The notes beneath the pieces were generated by a model that saw nothing but the letters and a program-made list of their open reading frames with translations, did no database searches and was not told where the DNA came from. Source: Candidatus Woesebacteria bacterium (lineage in GTDB: Bacteria > Patescibacteriota > Microgenomatia > UBA1400 > MFAQ01). Taken from it: a stretch of DNA of 64,000 nt. Both the position numbers and the translations under genes were made by a program. Below are positions 26,431 to 43,372 of this stretch, in pieces; the first letter of the stretch is position 1; every line of letters starts with the position of its first letter. The stretch covers positions 759,419 through 823,418 of the forward strand of contig DAOORK010000001.1 of the NCBI GenBank assembly GCA_035389185.1, in the 5' to 3' direction.

Positions 26431-27168
26431 ATGAAAGCAATAAAATTTTCGTTAGGTTTGGGGAGCGTGGTGGCGATTTTGGCTCTTTTGTACTTCTTCC
26501 CTTGGAAAAACATTACCTGGGGTAAAGTGGTGATGAGTCCAGAGAGAATCGTTACGGTGACGGGATATGCGGAGTCTCAAGAACAAAATCAGATTGCGGA
26601 GTTTAGTGCCGGGGTGAGTTCGATAAAAGACAATAAAGATGAAGCTGTAAAAGAGGTTAATGACAAAATCAACGCCATCACAATAGCGGTGAAGGAGTTT
26701 GGAGTGAGTTCGGATGATATCCAAACCCAGTCGATGAGTGTGTACCAAGGACAGGAAACCTATTATGACAATGGAGTACAAAAAAGCAGACCCGGACAAT
26801 GGAATGTCAACAATACAATCGTGATTACACTAAGAGATACAGCAAAGGCTAACGGGCTGACGGACTTACTGACCAAGAGTGGGGCAACAAATGTTTATGG
26901 ACCAAACTTTCAACTGGACACAAGTAAAAAAGCAGAGGATTCCTTGATGGCCGCGGCAATTGCTGATGCTAGAGTCAAGGCGGAAGCAATGGCCAAGGCG
27001 AGTGACACCAGTTTGAATAAAGTGATTAGTGTGACTGAAGGAAGCAGCGGATCGACGGCTTATCCACTACTCTACGCGAAGGCTGATGGGATGGGGGGAG
27101 GAGCTTCACTTGAGGCTGGAACATCAAAAATAAGTAAGACGGTGACGGTGGTTTGGAGTCTTAAGTAG
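26431..27168 (+). CDS. SIMPL/DUF541-family periplasmic protein
   Basis: N-terminal TM anchor; characteristic two-lobed DUF541 pattern (VTVTGYAES..., ...KAEAMAKA...). Confidence 0.7.
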   Translation: MKAIKFSLGLGSVVAILALLYFFPWKNITWGKVVMSPERIVTVTGYAESQEQNQIAEFSAGVSSIKDNKDEAVKEVNDKINAITIAVKEFGVSSDDIQTQSMSVYQGQETYYDNGVQKSRPGQWNVNNTIVITLRDTAKANGLTDLLTKSGATNVYGPNFQLDTSKKAEDSLMAAAIADARVKAEAMAKASDTSLNKVISVTEGSSGSTAYPLLYAKADGMGGGASLEAGTSKISKTVTVVWSLK

Positions 27169-27170
27169 GA

Positions 27171-27201
27171 CTTGCACAAAACCATCTCGATTGGTATACT
27201 A
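27171..27201 (+). promoter_or_regulatory. promoter-like TTGCAC-N17-TATACT
   Basis: ttgcacaaaaccatctcgattggtatact located ~85 nt upstream of terminator at 27286. Confidence 0.35.
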
Positions 27202-27285
27202 TCACTTGTCCTTAGCAGACAATATGATTTTTACTCAAAAGATAACAACAAAGTCTCCTTAGATTTTTTGTTGCCTTTTGTGCAA

Positions 27286-27315
27286 AAACAGCTTCGCTAA
27301 GGCGAAGCTTTTTTA
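27286..27315 (+). terminator. intrinsic terminator agcttcgctaaggcgaagct + T6
   Basis: 8-bp stem, tetraloop, U-tract. Confidence 0.6.
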
Positions 27316-27351
27316 ATAGATGCACATTTTTAACAATCCGAAAAGATATAC

Positions 27352-27424
27352 GGGCCGTTAGCTCATCTGGTAGAGCGCTACATTTGCAATGTAGAGGTGG
27401 CCGGTCCGAGTCCGGCACGGTCCA
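27352..27424 (+). tRNA. tRNA-Ala (anticodon TGC)
   Basis: cloverleaf: acceptor GGGCCGT/ACGGTCC with diagnostic G3:U70, D-stem GCTC/GAGC, anticodon loop TTTGCAA, T-stem GCCGG/CCGGC; CC of CCA encoded. Confidence 0.9.
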
Positions 27425-27596
27425 CCCTCCTCATAGGCGAGTAGGTACTGAAATTCGAGAACTGGTGATTGACTCTAAAGAAACTTCCATTTAGAATCGA
27501 CCACGAGCTCTTGGAGCTCTAGTAAGGATTGCTCCTTGAAAAGTGAATAGATTATGCAAGTAGATCGCATGAATTCAAATTCAATTTGAAATTTTT

Positions 27597-30822
<3,226 letters not shown>

Positions 30823-30887
30823 ATTTATCATGCTATCTTTTTGCAATCGTCTATTCACTATTCAGGGAGTAATACATACTTTAATAT

Positions 30888-30961
30888 CGTATTAGGTATC
30901 AAGTATTAAGTATTATGTATTGGGAAATGCATAATACGTACTGCATAATACGTAATACGAG
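30888..30961. repeat. palindromic array of GTATTA(N)GTATTATGTAT-family repeats in 23S-5S spacer
   Basis: cgtattaggtatcaagtattaagtattatgtatt ... cataatacgtactgcataatacgtaatacg (second half is reverse complement of first). Confidence 0.6.
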
Positions 30962-31033
30962 AAACCTTGAAATTTGATAAACGATTATCACTGGAGAAGA
31001 TAGGAGAGAATTAATAACTTTTCTCTATTATCT

Positions 31034-31153
31034 TGTCCGGTGATCTGAGCGATTTGGAACCACCTCTTCCCATTTCGAACAGAGAAGTGAAACAGGTCAG
31101 CGTCGATGATAGTGACTGGGCAACCTTTTGCGAAAGTAGATCATCGCCGGGCA
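31034..31153 (+). rRNA. rrf: 5S rRNA
   Basis: CCATTTCGAACAGAGAAGTGAAAC and GCGAAAGTAG conserved blocks; terminal helix TGTCCGG/CCGGGCA; ~120 nt. Confidence 0.85.
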
Positions 31154-37080: not shown

Positions 37081-38397
37081 CTATTTTTTGGAAAGAGGAA
37101 TCTCTCTGATAGTCTTGTGTGTTTGGGGAGAGAAGATTTTGTCGTAGCCTAAAGTTTTGGCTTCTTTGAGCATTTTGTCGGTGAAACCAACCCTTCTGAT
37201 CTCTCCTAATAGGCCAAGTTCGCCAAAACTGATGGAGTTGTCGGGAAGAGGCACATCCTTGGCAGAAGAGATGATGGCAAGAGCAATGCCAAGATCTGCT
37301 CCCGGATCTTTGACGTCCATACCGCCAGTAACATTGACAAAAACATCCTTTTCGCTTAAAGGGAGATGGAGATGTTTGGTAAGAATAGCGCAGATAAGCT
37401 GAAGTCTGTTGGTAGAGACTCCTTTGGCAATGCGACGGGGGACGGGGAGAGGTGAGGAGACAACGAGAGCTTGGATTTCGATAGTCAGCGGTCTGGTGCC
37501 TTCCATAATCATGGTAAGACATGAGCCTGGAGCATTTTTAATACGGCCATCCAATAAAATAGCACCGGGGTCTTTGACTTCTTCCAGGCCTAAGCTTGTC
37601 ATTTGAAAAATACCGGTCTCGTCGGTGGGACCAAAGCGATTTTTGATAGTTCTGAGTAAGCGTAAAAGGTGCTGTCTATCGCCACTTAATTCAAGAACTG
37701 TATCAACCATGTGTTCAAGCATTTTTGGGCCGGCGATGTCACCAACTTTGGTGACATGACCGACAATAATCAGAGGAACACCGTGTTCTTTGGCTGTTTG
37801 AATAAGCAGTGAGGCACTGTCTCTGATCTGTGATGGAGAGCCTGGAGTAGTAGCGTTTTGGTTGGTGTAAACAGACTGTATAGAGTCGATAATGACCAAG
37901 GAATTTTTATTTTTGGCAATGGTTTCGCAAATCTCGTCGACAAGAGAAGTACTTAAAAGATGAAGATTGGCGGTGTCTTTTTTGGAGAGTCTTTTGATAC
38001 GGGTGGCTACCTGGGCGGGATTTTCTTCGGAACAGACATAGTAAACATCTTGGGGCACGGATAGAGCGAGTTGGGTGAGAAGGGTGGACTTGCCAATGCC
38101 GGGCTGACCGGCCAATAGATAAACTCCGCCGCGAGTAAGCCCGGGGCCTAGGACGCGGTCAAACTCACCAATGCCTGTTGAAAAAGTGTAGCCTTGCTCG
38201 GAGGTTAGGGCTTCTTTGACGGTGAAAGACTCGGCAGGCTTGACGGAAGTTTTTTTGGTGCCTCCTCTTGGGGTTTTGAGAAAGGGGGTGGCTTCAACGA
38301 GAGTGTTCCATTCGTGGCAAGCAGGGCATTGACCTGCCCATTTGGCAAACTCGTTGCCACAGCTATTACAGAAAAAAACAGTTGAGGATTTTGGCAT
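37081..38397 (-). CDS. radA: DNA repair protein RadA/Sms
   Basis: N-terminal C4 zinc finger CNSCGNEFAKWAGQCPAC, Walker A GQPGIGKST, KNRFG motif, C-terminal Lon-protease-like domain. Confidence 0.9.
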   Translation of the reverse strand: MPKSSTVFFCNSCGNEFAKWAGQCPACHEWNTLVEATPFLKTPRGGTKKTSVKPAESFTVKEALTSEQGYTFSTGIGEFDRVLGPGLTRGGVYLLAGQPGIGKSTLLTQLALSVPQDVYYVCSEENPAQVATRIKRLSKKDTANLHLLSTSLVDEICETIAKNKNSLVIIDSIQSVYTNQNATTPGSPSQIRDSASLLIQTAKEHGVPLIIVGHVTKVGDIAGPKMLEHMVDTVLELSGDRQHLLRLLRTIKNRFGPTDETGIFQMTSLGLEEVKDPGAILLDGRIKNAPGSCLTMIMEGTRPLTIEIQALVVSSPLPVPRRIAKGVSTNRLQLICAILTKHLHLPLSEKDVFVNVTGGMDVKDPGADLGIALAIISSAKDVPLPDNSISFGELGLLGEIRRVGFTDKMLKEAKTLGYDKIFSPQTHKTIREIPLSKK

Positions 38398-38400
38398 ATT

Positions 38401-38436
38401 CGTATTATGTATTAAGTATTATGTATTATGTATGAG
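38401..38436 (+). repeat. GTATTATGTAT-family repeat copy B
   Basis: cgtattatgtattaagtattatgtattatgtatgag; lies between radA start and four-helix-bundle gene stop (overlaps its last codons). Confidence 0.6.
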
Positions 38437-38794
38437 AATTAAGATATTTGATAAGGGAGTTTATGAGTTTGCTGACAATGATTGTTTGTTCAGCAATCGT
38501 GGTAAAGTCTTTCTGTTTTATATAACCGATGTCTTTGGCAATAAGCAGTTGGTTTTGAACTTCGGTAAGGGACCCGAGTGCTTGATGGAAAAATTGTCTT
38601 TTTTCTAAAGATGACCTTCGGGAAAAACCTTCGGCAATATTTGAAGATACAGATACGGAAGCCCGTCGAATTTGGTTTGTAAGACTGTATTGTTCGTCTT
38701 TGGGAAATGATTTGGTGATGTTGTATATGAACAAATCGAGGGAGTGAGCTTCTTTCCAAGCGTTTAGATCAGTAAAAGATTTTATGATCCCCAT
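38426..38794 (-). CDS. four-helix-bundle protein (family first described as '23S rRNA intervening-sequence protein')
   Basis: W.EAH.L...IY.ITK.FPK.E.YSLTNQIRRASVSV.SNIAEGF.R.S..E...F...ALGSL.E....L.IA.DIGY signature; 122 aa. Confidence 0.8.
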   Translation of the reverse strand: MGIIKSFTDLNAWKEAHSLDLFIYNITKSFPKDEQYSLTNQIRRASVSVSSNIAEGFSRRSSLEKRQFFHQALGSLTEVQNQLLIAKDIGYIKQKDFTTIAEQTIIVSKLINSLIKYLNSHT

Positions 38795-38836
38795 ACAAAT
38801 ACATAATACATGATTCCTGATACAAAATACGTATCC
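38795..38836 (-). repeat. GTATTATGTAT-family repeat copy C (inverted relative to B)
   Basis: reverse complement reads ggatacgtattttgtatcaggaatcatgtattatgtatttgtat. Confidence 0.55.
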
Positions 38837-39371
38837 CTAAGGGGGTATTTTGACGGGGTTTTGAAGCTAAAAAGAGTATAGGATAACCCGGAAATCGGTT
38901 ATAGGTTGATAAGCTTGACAGGTTGTGATATATTGTCGGTTAGGTCAAGTAAATTCAAAAAAACTAATGAAAAATCTGCTCAACAAATTAGTAAATACGC
39001 GTAAAAGGACCGTCCGGGTGAACCGGAACCTACATCGCGAAACCGTTTCTTTTCAGATTGCAAAAATGGGAAGAATGGGACAGCAACTAGTGGTTGCAAG
39101 CCGCTAATTCCTCAAACACTTTAAAATCGATATTTTTAGGCAAGAAAAAAGCATTATCACCGTAGCCTAACTCGAATGACAATGCTTTTTTGCATTGGTT
39201 AATGAAAGGACAGTTTTCATCAACCACCTACAGATTAACATCGGCAAAAATCACTGTCAACTATAACAAAAGGCCTCAGAGTTGGGTGTGATGACGAGTT
39301 GGGCAGGCACGTCATCACCCCTATTGTGAGGCTTTTTGGTAACAAAAAGCAGTTTCAGGAAGGGAGAGAAG

Positions 39372-39636: not shown

Positions 39637-39650
39637 GTGGCTAGGGGGAA

Positions 39651-39686
39651 CGTATTATGAATTATGTATTAAGTATTATGTATGAG
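39651..39686 (+). repeat. GTATTATGTAT-family repeat copy D
   Basis: cgtattatgaattatgtattaagtattatgtatgag, ~90% identical to copy B, 8 nt from stop of giant membrane protein gene. Confidence 0.6.
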
Positions 39687-39694
39687 AGGGGAAA

Positions 39695-42600
39695 TTACTT
39701 TTTATGGCGACGGCAAAGGGCGATAACTATGGCGATAAGGGGGATGAGGATGAGGACAGTAAGCCCGAGGAACTCGAGGTACTGTGGAAGGTAGAGGATT
39801 ACAATATTTGACATGCCTTCGGGAAGTATCCAAGAGTTGTGCCAGGAAGAGTTTGTTGGCGTTAGTTTGGTGAGGAACGGTGCAGTAAGCGGGGAAGCGA
39901 GTGCAAGGAGCCATGAGGACATTTGGATGTCTCTTGATGCGACAGAGAAGGCTTTCCAAGAGGAAGATCGAGTTTGGTAGAGATTGAGAATTGAGCCTTT
40001 GTCGGCAGTGACGGAGAGTGTGTAAAGGAAAGAGTATGGATGAGTGGATGAATTAAGAACTGCTTGGCTTGGAGTAGATGCAGCCCCGATGCCGATTGAC
40101 TGAAGAAAATGGAGAGGAACTGGACGAATGGAGATAGATTTTAGGAGATTGCTGGTGATGGCTCTGCCAAAAGATTGATTTGCCAGATGAAGAGTGTAAC
40201 CGGCGCTTTCCTCTGGATTGGCAACGGGCTGGATAACGTACTGAACCTCTTTGGTTTTAGCTAGACGTTCTTGGATATCACAACGGCGAGAAGTAAAGTT
40301 TTCCAGACAGATGGTGGTTGCCAGACCCTTTTGGAAACGATAATCGAAGGCAAAAAGATAGTTGAGAGAGTGAGGCAGATGACGGAGATTGAGGATGTCA
40401 CATTCATCGGCGTTTTGGCTTTGATAGAGAATGCCATCGGAGGTTATCTGTTTGACAGTAAGACCGTCGTTCCATTGATCGCAGTTGAGATTTTCCGGGA
40501 AAAGAGTGTTGCTATCCGGAGTTTCTTTTAGGTCGAACTGAGTGTCGGTATCGGGAAGAGATATTTGGATTCGCTGAAGATCGCCTTTGAGGGTAATTTG
40601 TTTTTCGGAAATGTGAGGAAGAGCGACAGAAGCTGAATAGATTTGCGGAAGAACGGCGGCTTGGATGTCGCTGTAATCAATTTCTTTGGGGGACTTGGTT
40701 TCACCGGCTTCGAGAAGAAGATTAACCTGTTGGTATGACCCGGTAGACTTGGCAAAAAGACGGGTGCGAGTAGTTTTTTCCGAGGACTGGAGACTTTGGG
40801 GAAGATTGATGGCCAAAAGATTTTTACCCGAAATATTGACGTTGCCGGTAGTGAGAGTTGGTGAAGAGTAGGAGAAAGATAGGGAGATGAGACTTCCCTT
40901 GCTAATAAAAGGAAGGGGCGCGGAAAGACAGCCGGTGACATCGGTACCAATAAGGGAGACACTGTTGGCGGTGATTAGCTTCTCGACTTTGCGATTGGGT
41001 TTTATGGTGTAGCACTGGTCTGGAGTAGCTTGACTAAGATTGTTGGTGAGATCGTAACTGACGCTTTCTGAGCTACTGTAGAGAGAGGCCGTGAAGGATT
41101 TTTGGGTGGGTAGGTAAACTGTGGTTAGAGGATAAAAGTCGGAGAAACTTTCGAGTTCTGCCGGTAGTTGAAGTTCAAAGTAGTTTTGGTTGAGTTCGAG
41201 AATAAAACCGGATCCGACGGTTCCAGGAATGGAAACAGAAATGGAGTCGGCTTGGAGATCGATCTGGTTGTTGTCGAGAAAAATGGTAGGGATGATAGGG
41301 GTGAGACGAATATCAAGACTGTTACCGAGTTTACGATACTCAATTTCGACGGGAAGGAGAGCTTCGGTGTCGCTAAGGGAAGGAATAGTGATTGTGTCAC
41401 CGGCTTGGGCGGAAACAGGCAAACCAAGGTTGAGGTAGTTGCCTTTTTTGGTCCAGTCGGTGTTGGGACGAAGTGAGAGCGAGGTAAAAGGATACTGAGT
41501 GGATGTAGCGGAACCGGCGGAGAGAAAGTTTTGGGGAGAGTCCGGAAGACTCACCTTGTAAAGAGAGATCCGGTCACCAAACTGTTTATCTAAGGTGAAC
41601 TTTTTGGAGTTTCCGAGGAATTGTTTGAGAGTGATTAAACCAGAGTCGGTTGCGTTTTCGGCGAGAGAGACATACTCGTCGACGAGAAGCCAGTTGAGGG
41701 AGTATTTGTCGAGAACAGTTTCGAAGTCTACTTGATTGCCGGAGTAGAGAGCGGTGCTCATTTCTTCGTAGTAATGTTCGCTATTTTTGTCCCAGACATC
41801 AAAAGCACGGTCCATTAAGGGCTGACGGAGACCGTACCAGAGGAAACCAGAACCGCGATAACCCCAGTCGTAGTGCCCCCAACCCCAAAAAGAGAACTGA
41901 GGGAAATTGGCGATACGGGTGGCCGGATCTTGGGTTTTCATGTAAGCAAAAAGATCAAAGTATTCTTGGGGAATTGTTTGTCTCATGGCAGGAGAAAGGA
42001 GATTGCCGGAGAAAGCGGGGGACATAAACAGGATCAGGGAGAAGGTAACGGTAAAAAGAGTGAAGTAGTAAGTGAATCTGGTGTGGAGAAAAGAGAAGAG
42101 GTCAAGAAGGAAGATGGTACCTATGGAGAAGAAAAAAGAATAAGCGAGAGAAAGAGGAATGGAAAATTTGGTGAAAGGAGAACGAAAAAGTTCACCAATA
42201 AGAGGGATTTTGTTGTTGACTAAGAGTCCGCCACCCATGAGGAAAAATAGACAAAGGGCAAGGACGCCGATAAAAGATTTGGTCCAGGTGAAGTGTTTTT
42301 TGAATGAGTAGTAGAGGCCAGTGATAACAAGAATAAAAGAGAGATAGCCGATGATATTGACGATAGGGATATTGAGATGGTTGCGCCAGACTGAAAGGAG
42401 ATAGGTGTATTTGTTGTCTTGGCCGAGGTCGAGGTAGTTGAAGAGGTAGCCCTTCAAAAGAGCTGTGTCGCTGAAGGTGGCAAACTGAAGATTTCGGGCA
42501 TAGGTCTCAGGAGAGGAGAGGAGGTTGTTTTTGGCCTGCTCGGCGACGTGACCATTGGTGAGAACAAAAAAGGCGACCGGGAGAAGCCAGAAAAGGTGAG

Positions 42601-43372
42601 GGATGATGAGTGAAAGAAGGGAAAGGAGAGTTGTCTTTAGATGTTTAATTTTGGCTTTTTGCTGGGTGAGGAACTCAATAAGGAAAGGCAAGACAGTGAC
42701 AAAAAAGACGAGGAAAATGGTCTCGACATAGAAGCTAGGGGCAGAGAGAAAAGAAATAATAAAGAGAATAAAGAAGTTTTTGGGAGAAGGATGGGTGAGA
42801 TAGGAAATAACGAAGTAGAGAAGCCAAGGGAGGGCGCCGTAGAATTGGGTGAAAGTCTCGAAGGGGACGAAAAATGTCTGCAGGGTGTTGAGGTTTAAAA
42901 GGTAAAAAAGAGCGCCGAGGAAGGAAGCAAATTGGATAGAGCGGGAGTCGAGCTTGCCTTTGAAAAGGTGATTATAAAAAAGAAGGTAAACACCCAAGGG
43001 GCCGGCAATTAGGGGTAAAAAGGTGGTGATGTAGCGAATGAGATCAACAGGAACATGGGAGAGAAATAGGATAGCAATAAAGAGGACGCGGGGAAGATCG
43101 GCGGCGTGGGCCATGCCTCCGAGAAGCCCAGGACCTCGGTATTCCTGCCAGACAGAGAAGAAAGTGCGGCGAAGGTTTTCTACTATATCAAACTCGGGGT
43201 GAAGGTTGTCCCAGCCGGTGAGAAAGGTACCCGGTTCGTAGTTGAGGAAGACCAGGAGACCGACGATAAAAAGAAGTGCAATGATGGGCCAGATGCGAGC
43301 AAGAGCTTTCCCTAGGTGACGGATTTGTTTGAGGGGAAAACGGTGTTTGGGTTTGGTAATATTCTTGGCCAC
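39695..43372 (-). CDS. giant (1225 aa) polytopic membrane protein, putative GT-C-fold glycosyltransferase-like
   Basis: ~14 TM N-terminal half with periplasmic loops (GWDNLHPEF...), ~600-aa extracytoplasmic middle, C-terminal TM cluster; GTG start. Confidence 0.55.
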   Translation of the reverse strand: MAKNITKPKHRFPLKQIRHLGKALARIWPIIALLFIVGLLVFLNYEPGTFLTGWDNLHPEFDIVENLRRTFFSVWQEYRGPGLLGGMAHAADLPRVLFIAILFLSHVPVDLIRYITTFLPLIAGPLGVYLLFYNHLFKGKLDSRSIQFASFLGALFYLLNLNTLQTFFVPFETFTQFYGALPWLLYFVISYLTHPSPKNFFILFIISFLSAPSFYVETIFLVFFVTVLPFLIEFLTQQKAKIKHLKTTLLSLLSLIIPHLFWLLPVAFFVLTNGHVAEQAKNNLLSSPETYARNLQFATFSDTALLKGYLFNYLDLGQDNKYTYLLSVWRNHLNIPIVNIIGYLSFILVITGLYYSFKKHFTWTKSFIGVLALCLFFLMGGGLLVNNKIPLIGELFRSPFTKFSIPLSLAYSFFFSIGTIFLLDLFSFLHTRFTYYFTLFTVTFSLILFMSPAFSGNLLSPAMRQTIPQEYFDLFAYMKTQDPATRIANFPQFSFWGWGHYDWGYRGSGFLWYGLRQPLMDRAFDVWDKNSEHYYEEMSTALYSGNQVDFETVLDKYSLNWLLVDEYVSLAENATDSGLITLKQFLGNSKKFTLDKQFGDRISLYKVSLPDSPQNFLSAGSATSTQYPFTSLSLRPNTDWTKKGNYLNLGLPVSAQAGDTITIPSLSDTEALLPVEIEYRKLGNSLDIRLTPIIPTIFLDNNQIDLQADSISVSIPGTVGSGFILELNQNYFELQLPAELESFSDFYPLTTVYLPTQKSFTASLYSSSESVSYDLTNNLSQATPDQCYTIKPNRKVEKLITANSVSLIGTDVTGCLSAPLPFISKGSLISLSFSYSSPTLTTGNVNISGKNLLAINLPQSLQSSEKTTRTRLFAKSTGSYQQVNLLLEAGETKSPKEIDYSDIQAAVLPQIYSASVALPHISEKQITLKGDLQRIQISLPDTDTQFDLKETPDSNTLFPENLNCDQWNDGLTVKQITSDGILYQSQNADECDILNLRHLPHSLNYLFAFDYRFQKGLATTICLENFTSRRCDIQERLAKTKEVQYVIQPVANPEESAGYTLHLANQSFGRAITSNLLKSISIRPVPLHFLQSIGIGAASTPSQAVLNSSTHPYSFLYTLSVTADKGSILNLYQTRSSSWKAFSVASRDIQMSSWLLALASPLTAPFLTKLTPTNSSWHNSWILPEGMSNIVILYLPQYLEFLGLTVLILIPLIAIVIALCRRHKK

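Follow-up and report, generated by a model that had tools for sequence, protein, structure and literature searches.

The 64,000-nt stretch analysed here (the window; contig DAOORK010000001.1, positions 759,419 to 823,418, from a Candidatus Woesebacteria genome, assembly GCA_035389185.1) carries on its minus strand a small gene that lies directly upstream of the repair gene radA and is enclosed by two arrays of a tandem 7-nt repeat. The 122-aa product of the open reading frame (ORF) 38426-38794(-) matched the family PF05635 (23S_rRNA_IVP) with an E-value of 1.4e-36 and 125.4 bits (cut-off 33.8) and TIGR02436 with 118.9 bits (cut-off 24), and its residues 9-116 aligned with chain A of PDB entry 2GSC, the solved four-helix-bundle protein XCC0516, with an E-value of 6e-21. 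Scoring above both curated cut-offs, the ORF encodes a four-helix-bundle (4HB) protein of the type first named after the intervening sequences (IVSs) of 23S rRNA, which confirmed the family call of a preliminary description of this DNA made from the letters alone. An identical protein is present on the Joint Genome Institute (JGI) contig Ga0116242_10000012, and one word-limited search of PF05635 returned 5727 relatives. The defence-system models gave no match. To our knowledge, no function has been established for PF05635 since 1993.

The repeat that surrounds the gene is the tandem heptamer GTATTAN. Tandem Repeats Finder (TRF) reported it with a period of 7 and 4-5.6 copies at four sites: 38402-38435(+) and 38797-38830(-) on the two sides of the gene, 30889-30922(+)/30932-30958(-) next to the 23S rRNA gene and 39652-39685(+), here called array D, a place that the preliminary description does not mention. 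Allowing at most one mismatch, GTATTATGTAT matched the window 15 times against 0.9 expected, a number reached by none of 100 shuffled sequences, and all 15 matches are confined to the four array places. With four places per 64 kb the repeat does not stand upstream of most genes, as a ubiquitous promoter motif would. On the coding strand, the 5' arm reads GTATTTT GTATCAG GAATCAT GTATTAT GTATTTGT and is followed by the 4HB ATG, the outer edge of the cassette on this side lying near 38836-38841. The 3' arm reads CTCATAC ATAATAC ATAATAC TTAATAC ATAATAC G, and the last codons of the gene and its stop (TCT CAT ACA TAA, that is S, H, T and stop) belong to this complementary array. The preliminary description had the gene bracketed by inverted repeats, one of them overlapping its last codons, and the array positions agree with this. 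It had also called them terminal inverted repeats; they are inverted at both ends, but they are really tandem 7-nt arrays and a property of the whole family, not of this locus. The features are listed in Table 1.

Table 1. Position of the cassette, of its arms and of the related arrays in the window.
Feature	Position	Strand	Basis
radA, 438 aa, co-directional, directly downstream of the cassette	37081..38397	-	window ORF
3' arm, 5 NTAATAC units (complementary), ends 4 nt before the radA ATG	38398..38435	-	sequence; filled/empty alignment
4HB gene, 122 aa, pI 9.4	38426..38794	-	PF05635/TIGR02436 matches; dN/dS ~0.07 vs L096, L091
5' arm, ~4 GTATTAN units, ends 2 nt before the 4HB ATG	38797..38836	-	sequence; filled/empty alignment
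Solo array D, with the stop of the 1225-aa ORF on one side and a bidirectional terminator on the other	39650..39688	-	TRF, alignment to relatives
ORF-less hairpin: 5 heptamer units, 6-nt loop, ~4 inverted units; 67 nt after 23S, 76 nt before 5S	30887..30960	+	TRF, RNA fold

Orthologous loci for the comparison of filled and empty sites were supplied by a scan of radA relatives. The site is empty in seven of them (L088, L090, L092, L093, L095, L098 and L115; RadA 85-92% identical), which share the left flank up to ...AAATATACCCCC and then continue with a 38-nt leader and radA, carrying neither the 4HB gene nor an array. Besides the window, three are filled at the same place and with the same arrays, namely L089/L091 (the L003 contig) and L096. 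In the neighbour-joining tree of RadA the filled and empty states are interspersed, and the nearest relative of the window, L088, is empty. The boundaries of the insertion or deletion derived from the alignment, ~38398 and ~38838, lie within a few bases of the cassette edges 38401-38836 proposed beforehand. The ~440-bp unit consisting of the 5' array, the ORF and the 3' array is a real insertion/deletion unit before radA in a shallow clade of Woesebacteria, and the discrete cassette of the preliminary description was thereby borne out; it had allowed that relatives might keep the gene at this locus without repeats, and L003/L091 and L096 keep the repeats together with the gene.

Both the protein and the arrays are conserved among the filled sites. 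For the 4HB gene of the window and its orthologues in L091 and L096, the ratio of nonsynonymous to synonymous substitution (dN/dS) was ~0.07, with pS values of 0.69-0.77 that place the synonymous sites near saturation. The 3' arm is identical to that of L091 at 33 of 35 positions (~94%), where pS is 0.77, and the 19 nt of the 5' arm closest to the ATG are identical to those of the relative. As the arms keep this identity despite nearly saturated synonymous sites, and as dN/dS is low, both the 4HB protein and its flanking arrays are under constraint. When the 447-nt unit 38396-38842(-) was folded as RNA, the energy was -85.4 kcal/mol (z -3.1), and in the minimum free energy structure a terminal stem of ~30 interrupted base pairs closes over the AUG.

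The occurrence of filled and empty sites raises the explanation that the unit is a mobile element acting at the DNA level, whose arrays would be terminal inverted repeats for a recombinase or reverse transcriptase (RT) encoded elsewhere, with the 4HB gene as cargo or as an Avd-like accessory, and with the solo arrays and the hairpin next to the 23S gene as footprints or truncated copies. The patchy presence and absence on the radA tree agrees with it, and two marks of DNA transposons and miniature inverted-repeat transposable elements, terminal inverted repeats and presence/absence polymorphism, were found; the other two, a target duplication and a transposase, were not. A second genomic context for the same cassette points in the same direction: a 128-aa 4HB protein, its arrays and the left flank are identical in L004 (1-900) and L003 (5540-6430), while L004 carries prfA in place of radA and its similarity to L003 breaks off precisely where the 3' array ends. 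This short Logan contig reflects a rearrangement at the array or else a short-read chimera formed at the repeat.

Array D may be read in the same way. Its minus strand, TCTCATACATAATACTTAATACATAATTCATAATACG, is a near copy of the 3' arm of the cassette and starts with TCTCATACATAA, which equals the final four codons of that gene; a TTCCCC direct repeat stands on either side of it, and the array is absent at the homologous site of L090, L093 and L091. By its sequence, it could be a 5'-truncated cassette end with a target duplication, as expected of a mobile element. Against this explanation, no transposase, integrase or RT is encoded in the window, the radA site has no clean target-site duplication, and the 38-nt leader of the empty sites is replaced, not split, in the filled ones. 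Moreover, strong purifying selection and long residence at conserved operon junctions would be unusual for a purely selfish element. On balance we regard a mobile element of this kind as unlikely.

The 1225-aa ORF next to array D (39695-43372) is, judging from its sequence, apparently a multi-pass membrane protein, and it has no Pfam match. Its C-terminal end departs from the relatives exactly at the array D insertion. In the JGI annotation, the region of this ORF is called as a 763-aa gene together with small ORFs.

The arrangement of a 4HB gene between heptamer arrays was followed in 80 loci that carry 4HB homologues (57-73% identity); they were taken from GTDB genomes, almost exclusively of the Candidate Phyla Radiation (CPR). 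In most of these loci heptamer arrays run into the ATG and out past the stop codon. The 487 kb around the CPR 4HB genes contained 140 arrays of period 7, compared with 0-8 for the periods 5, 6 and 8-11. A 4HB gene end is touched by 54 of the 140 and not by the remaining 86; 39% of the arrays lie within 25 nt of such an end, a space that makes up less than 2% of the sequence examined. Self-similarity at period 7, with a baseline of 28%, reaches 60-80% in the 30 nt that precede the ATG and likewise between 15 nt upstream and 25 nt downstream of the stop codon, while the periods 6 and 8 stay flat.

The unit varies by locus (GTATTA, GAATTA, GTAGTA, GTATTT, GAATCA, GGAATC and others), and the two arms vary together. 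Complementarity between the arms exceeded the 99th percentile of shuffled arms in 55 of 82 loci. As register shifts diluted the fixed-register pairing profiles and the ATG-phased consensus, the units were compared cyclically, without regard to phase: the mean distance between the 5' unit and the reverse complement of the 3' unit was 1.06 against 1.92 for permuted partners, and none of 200 permutations reached the observed value. Sorting the arrays by the ends of neighbouring ORFs proved too noisy with crude ORF calls. The polarity relative to the ORF is constant over unrelated units, the 5' flank being rich in G (474 G vs 154 C) and the 3' flank in C (426 C vs 226 G), and the same polarity was found in the cyanobacterial plasmid loci described below.

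The CPR cassettes are inserted among co-directional genes. The upstream neighbour has the direction of the 4HB gene in 73 of 77 loci and the downstream neighbour in 68 of 77. The gaps to them have medians of 32 and 24 nt, which leaves hardly any intergenic space outside the arrays. Certain junctions recur, namely thyA-[4HB]-folA (L031, L067, L020) and lexA-[4HB]-dinB (L010, L056), and in different CPR lineages they hold different 4HB subfamilies and units, an observation which also favours a mobile element. Taken with radA and with a 4HB gene between nrd genes on a cyanobacterial plasmid (Nostoc edaphicum), these junctions suggest a bias toward operons of DNA metabolism and the SOS response.

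Outside the CPR, 15 plasmid loci were analysed, 14 from Cyanobacteria and one from Riemerella (Bacteroidota). Most of them have the gene between arrays as well, with units unlike those of the CPR: the pairs AGGAGTC/GACTCCT, GTAGGGA/TCCCTAC, AAAGGGA/TCCCTTT, AGGGTGT/ACACCCT and GGTTCAA/TTGAACC were found, and Tolypothrix (L183) has an 8-nt unit, CAGGGGAG/CTCCCCTG. The design thus recurs in most of the ~95 relatives checked (82 CPR loci and 15 cyanobacterial or Riemerella plasmid loci). Two published cases from Gammaproteobacteria document the 5' array part of it. In the 23S IVS of Coxiella burnetii, three to four copies of GACAGAT directly precede the ATG of the S23p gene, the terminal stem measures 28 bp, and cleavage by RNase III within this stem was demonstrated experimentally (PMC4990558). 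In Xanthomonas, a supplement lists a four-unit GGGAATC array that overlaps the annotated start of XCC0516, 6 nt from accB/bccP (PMC4692102), which places this gene, too, beside a host gene.

These counts also bear on whether the association is incidental, that is, whether the arrays are simple repeats prone to slippage, or AT-rich motifs of promoters or leaders, that happen to flank a short gene. The 86 arrays away from 4HB genes and the -10-like CATAAT hexamers in the 3' arm, a few bases before radA, would fit such a view, and heptamer repeats are known to be over-represented in bacteria (PMC4692102). It is nevertheless very improbable in view of the concentration of arrays at 4HB gene ends, the covariation of the two arms, the start and stop codons in phase with the arrays and the presence of the pattern in four phyla with unrelated units; the promoter-like matches number 4, against 3.4 expected from shuffling.

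The third occurrence of the window repeat lies in the rRNA operon. As the 23S gene (27599-30820) ends at 30820 and the 5S gene (31036-31152) starts at 31036, the palindromic array falls into the 23S-5S spacer. There it would form a hairpin with a fold energy of -28.3 kcal/mol (z -5.9), for which Rfam contains no family. The preliminary description had noted the same repeat in both orientations as a palindrome in this spacer, and the hairpin at 30887-30960 upholds it. Its statement that IVSs normally live in this spacer did not hold, since they sit within 23S helices, e.g., helix 45 (PMC4990558). The cassette itself has protein-coding genes on both sides and is 7.6 kb away from the 23S gene, not inside helix 9, 25 or 45 of the 23S as IVSs are. 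Movement of the cassette to or from rRNA, which had been proposed as well, found no backing: the 23S of the window has no insertion at helix 25 or 45 (E. coli ~540 and ~1170), and the 80 other 4HB loci show no similarity to the rRNA operon of the window beyond short array matches, so that this comparison revealed no rRNA gene in them. An exchange between cassette and rRNA is a hypothesis rather than a finding.

The only large insertion in the 23S is one of 293 nt at E. coli position ~2504 in domain V (window 30127-30419), with a sub-threshold match to a Group I intron (24 bits, E 9e-4) and with neither an ORF nor a heptamer array. The operon (26431-31152) consists of tRNA-Ala, 23S and 5S with no 16S upstream; as the gene preceding it encodes a SIMPL/DUF541 protein, the 16S must be unlinked or located elsewhere. 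ORF-less heptamer hairpins beside or near 4HB genes were also observed in other CPR genomes (L036 3363-3440, L076 3369-3445, L057 2391-2440 and L020 791-856), sometimes nested immediately past the 4HB stop codon.

Among the known systems, the Coxiella IVS is close to the unit. In both, a PF05635 gene stands between terminal inverted repeats able to pair into a long stem, tandem heptamers come right before the ATG (three to four GACAGAT copies in Coxiella, ~4 units ending 2 nt before the ATG here), a good Shine-Dalgarno sequence is missing, and the heptamer copy number differs among strains. Unlike the Coxiella element, which lies within helix 45 of the 23S and is excised by RNase III, the unit of the window precedes radA amid protein-coding genes, and the rRNA operon of the window holds just the ORF-less hairpin, in the spacer and outside the 23S. 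Decay has been reported for the ORF of Coxiella; the 4HB gene of the window, by contrast, has a dN/dS of ~0.07. A further close system is reportedly the ORF in the Leptospira 23S IVS of Ralph and McClelland from 1993. XCC0516 shares with the window gene the homologous protein, the heptamer array at the start and the host-gene neighbour; it differs in its G-rich unit, which was studied as a quadruplex former and not linked by the authors to the gene family, and only its 5' array is documented.

The intergenic tandem heptamers of Cyanobacteria, Beggiatoaceae and Bacteroidetes form another group for comparison; such heptamers have been a separate puzzle since 1990. To them belong the short tandemly repeated repetitive (STRR) sequences, as well as the TAACTGA repeats and the heptamers at recF and recO of Nostoc. 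Like the arrays of the window, which have a period of 7, 4-5.6 copies and distances of 2 nt from the 4HB ATG and 4 nt from the radA ATG, these heptamers are tandem 7-nt units (2-8 or more copies) that lie a few bases from start codons or overlap them, with no established function or partner. The reports describe mostly direct solo arrays upstream of diverse genes, in contrast to the inverted pair around one gene family found here. Heptamer arrays that adjoin start codons have been described with the statement that their binding partner is unknown (PMC4679880; 10.1101/2022.06.06.494920), and neither the Xanthomonas GGGAATC paper (PMC4692102) nor the Beggiatoa TAACTGA paper (PMC4679880) mentions PF05635 or S23p.

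The last system, bAvd, the accessory variability determinant of diversity-generating retroelements (DGRs), is distantly homologous; it shares the four-helix-bundle fold family and is likewise small and basic. Both bAvd and XCC0516, homologues of the 4HB protein, assemble into pentamers, that of XCC0516 being a toroid, and nucleic-acid binding is established for bAvd. The 4HB protein is weakly similar to the bAvd model and to the DGR-Avd model, which could suggest that the window gene is such an accessory gene. This identity is extremely unlikely and was rejected, because the scores lie below both cut-offs (29.4 bits for bAvd, cut-off 40; 23.7 bits for NF033474, cut-off 80) and none of the 55 window ORFs with a length of 110 aa or more has an RT domain; a template/variable repeat pair was not seen either. 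We know of no Avd genes bracketed by heptamer arrays.

By analogy with the Coxiella IVS, we propose that the unit before radA is a non-rRNA copy of an IVS-type 4HB cassette that is slotted into an operon and whose arms pair into a stem of the RNase III type, and we assign this interpretation a probability of about 0.5. The cassette would be transcribed together with its neighbours, and the G-rich 5' arm and the C-rich 3' arm would pair in the RNA to give the interrupted ~30-bp stem, looping out the ORF and hiding its AUG. RNase III would then cut the stem, as it does in the Coxiella IVS, which would free or control the 4HB message, while radA would retain a leader of very few bases. In the spacer, the copy that lacks an ORF would be either a hairpin for the processing of pre-rRNA or a cassette minus its ORF. 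This interpretation is suggested by the architecture, identical to that of the IVS, by the thermodynamic folds, by the placement in an operon and by the polarity relative to the sense strand.

Several results weigh against the operon-slotted cassette with a cleavable stem. Mismatches of the G:U type were about as frequent in the stems as those of the A:C type (25 vs 22; 13 vs 17 outside the N column), whereas under selection for pairing in RNA the G:U type should be much better tolerated than A:C, so that there is no RNA-specific signature; the same symmetry is what homogenisation at the DNA level, as in a mobile element, predicts. Of the pairs at the seventh position of the unit, 35% are mismatched, which makes the helix a series of 6-bp blocks with frequent 1x1 mismatches. 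In Pseudanabaena (L171) long direct arrays of AAAAGCT/AAAAGCC lie at both sides of the gene and cannot form a stem, and in Nostoc 7120 and Stanieria (L168, L173) the upstream ACTTCAA and the downstream CCTCTGC are not complementary. Furthermore, no RNase III gene (rnc) is present in the window, and the target-site duplication sought at the radA junctions by comparing filled with empty sites was not found in a clean form.

Another explanation, which can coexist with the RNA stem, is that the arrays are binding sites, in RNA or DNA, of the 4HB protein itself, so that each gene would lie between its own sites and be autoregulated. The protein might also act on solo arrays elsewhere, which here comprise the hairpin in the spacer, array D and the leader of radA. 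Of 38 solo arrays located no more than 3 kb from a 4HB gene, 16 have a unit identical to that of the gene, with 2.5 expected and none of 500 permutations reaching this number; the relatives lacking the cassette have no GTATTA arrays across their ~6-kb loci, and the filled relatives carry extra ones. Six bases of the unit are conserved and the seventh varies freely, as would be expected of a protein site, and the unit follows the protein subfamily, GAATTA occurring with proteins of 128-131 aa and GTATTA with those of 121-126 aa. The basic nature of the protein (pI 9.4), the Xanthomonas GGGAATC array that overlaps the start of XCC0516 itself and the published start-codon heptamers that lack an identified partner are in line with binding. 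Shared units could, however, equally be due to common descent, to gene conversion among the arrays or to solo arrays that are cassette remnants. A protein that binds single strands would be unable to recognise both the G-rich arm and the complementary C-rich one, and the co-occurrence of 4HB genes and arrays was counted around 4HB genes only. We consider recognition of the arrays by the protein rather unlikely.

It is already known that 4HB genes are common outside rRNA, that the Coxiella IVS contains heptamers and that heptamers are over-represented in some bacteria. A full-text search of the literature found no general statement that PF05635 genes lie between inverted heptamer arrays across phyla, and none on their placement in operon slots, on a filled/empty polymorphism or on a link to the orphan heptamers; the only statement found of heptamers at the S23p gene is specific to Coxiella (PMC4990558). 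More broadly, the PF05635 proteins might be the partners of the intergenic heptamers of Cyanobacteria (STRR and others), Xanthomonas, Beggiatoaceae, Bacteroidota and CPR. Each paralogue would recognise its own 7-nt unit and sit between its own sites, and through solo arrays at start codons or in rRNA spacers it would control the processing or translation of host operons, often those of DNA metabolism (radA, lexA-dinB, thyA-folA, nrdAB), the 23S IVS being just one landing place. This generalisation is doubtful. If the design of a gene between arrays is general, the function of the 4HB proteins and the partner of the heptamers become one testable problem, and intervening sequences would not be a speciality of rRNA, as the cassette would also slot into mRNA operons. 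Such slotting would bear on the annotation and prediction of operons in CPR and cyanobacterial genomes.

On cyanobacterial plasmids, 4HB genes were also observed inside CRISPR-cas operons, in the orders cas6-[4HB]-cas4, cmr2-[4HB]-cmr3 and [4HB]-cas4 (Pseudanabaena L171, Picosynechococcus L172 and Anabaena 90 L181). Among the CPR loci, long arrays coincide with runs of N at scaffold gaps (L084 3352-3569 and L075 4062-4269). Long heptamer arrays disrupt or confuse short-read assemblies, and many of them may therefore be hidden in metagenome-assembled genomes.

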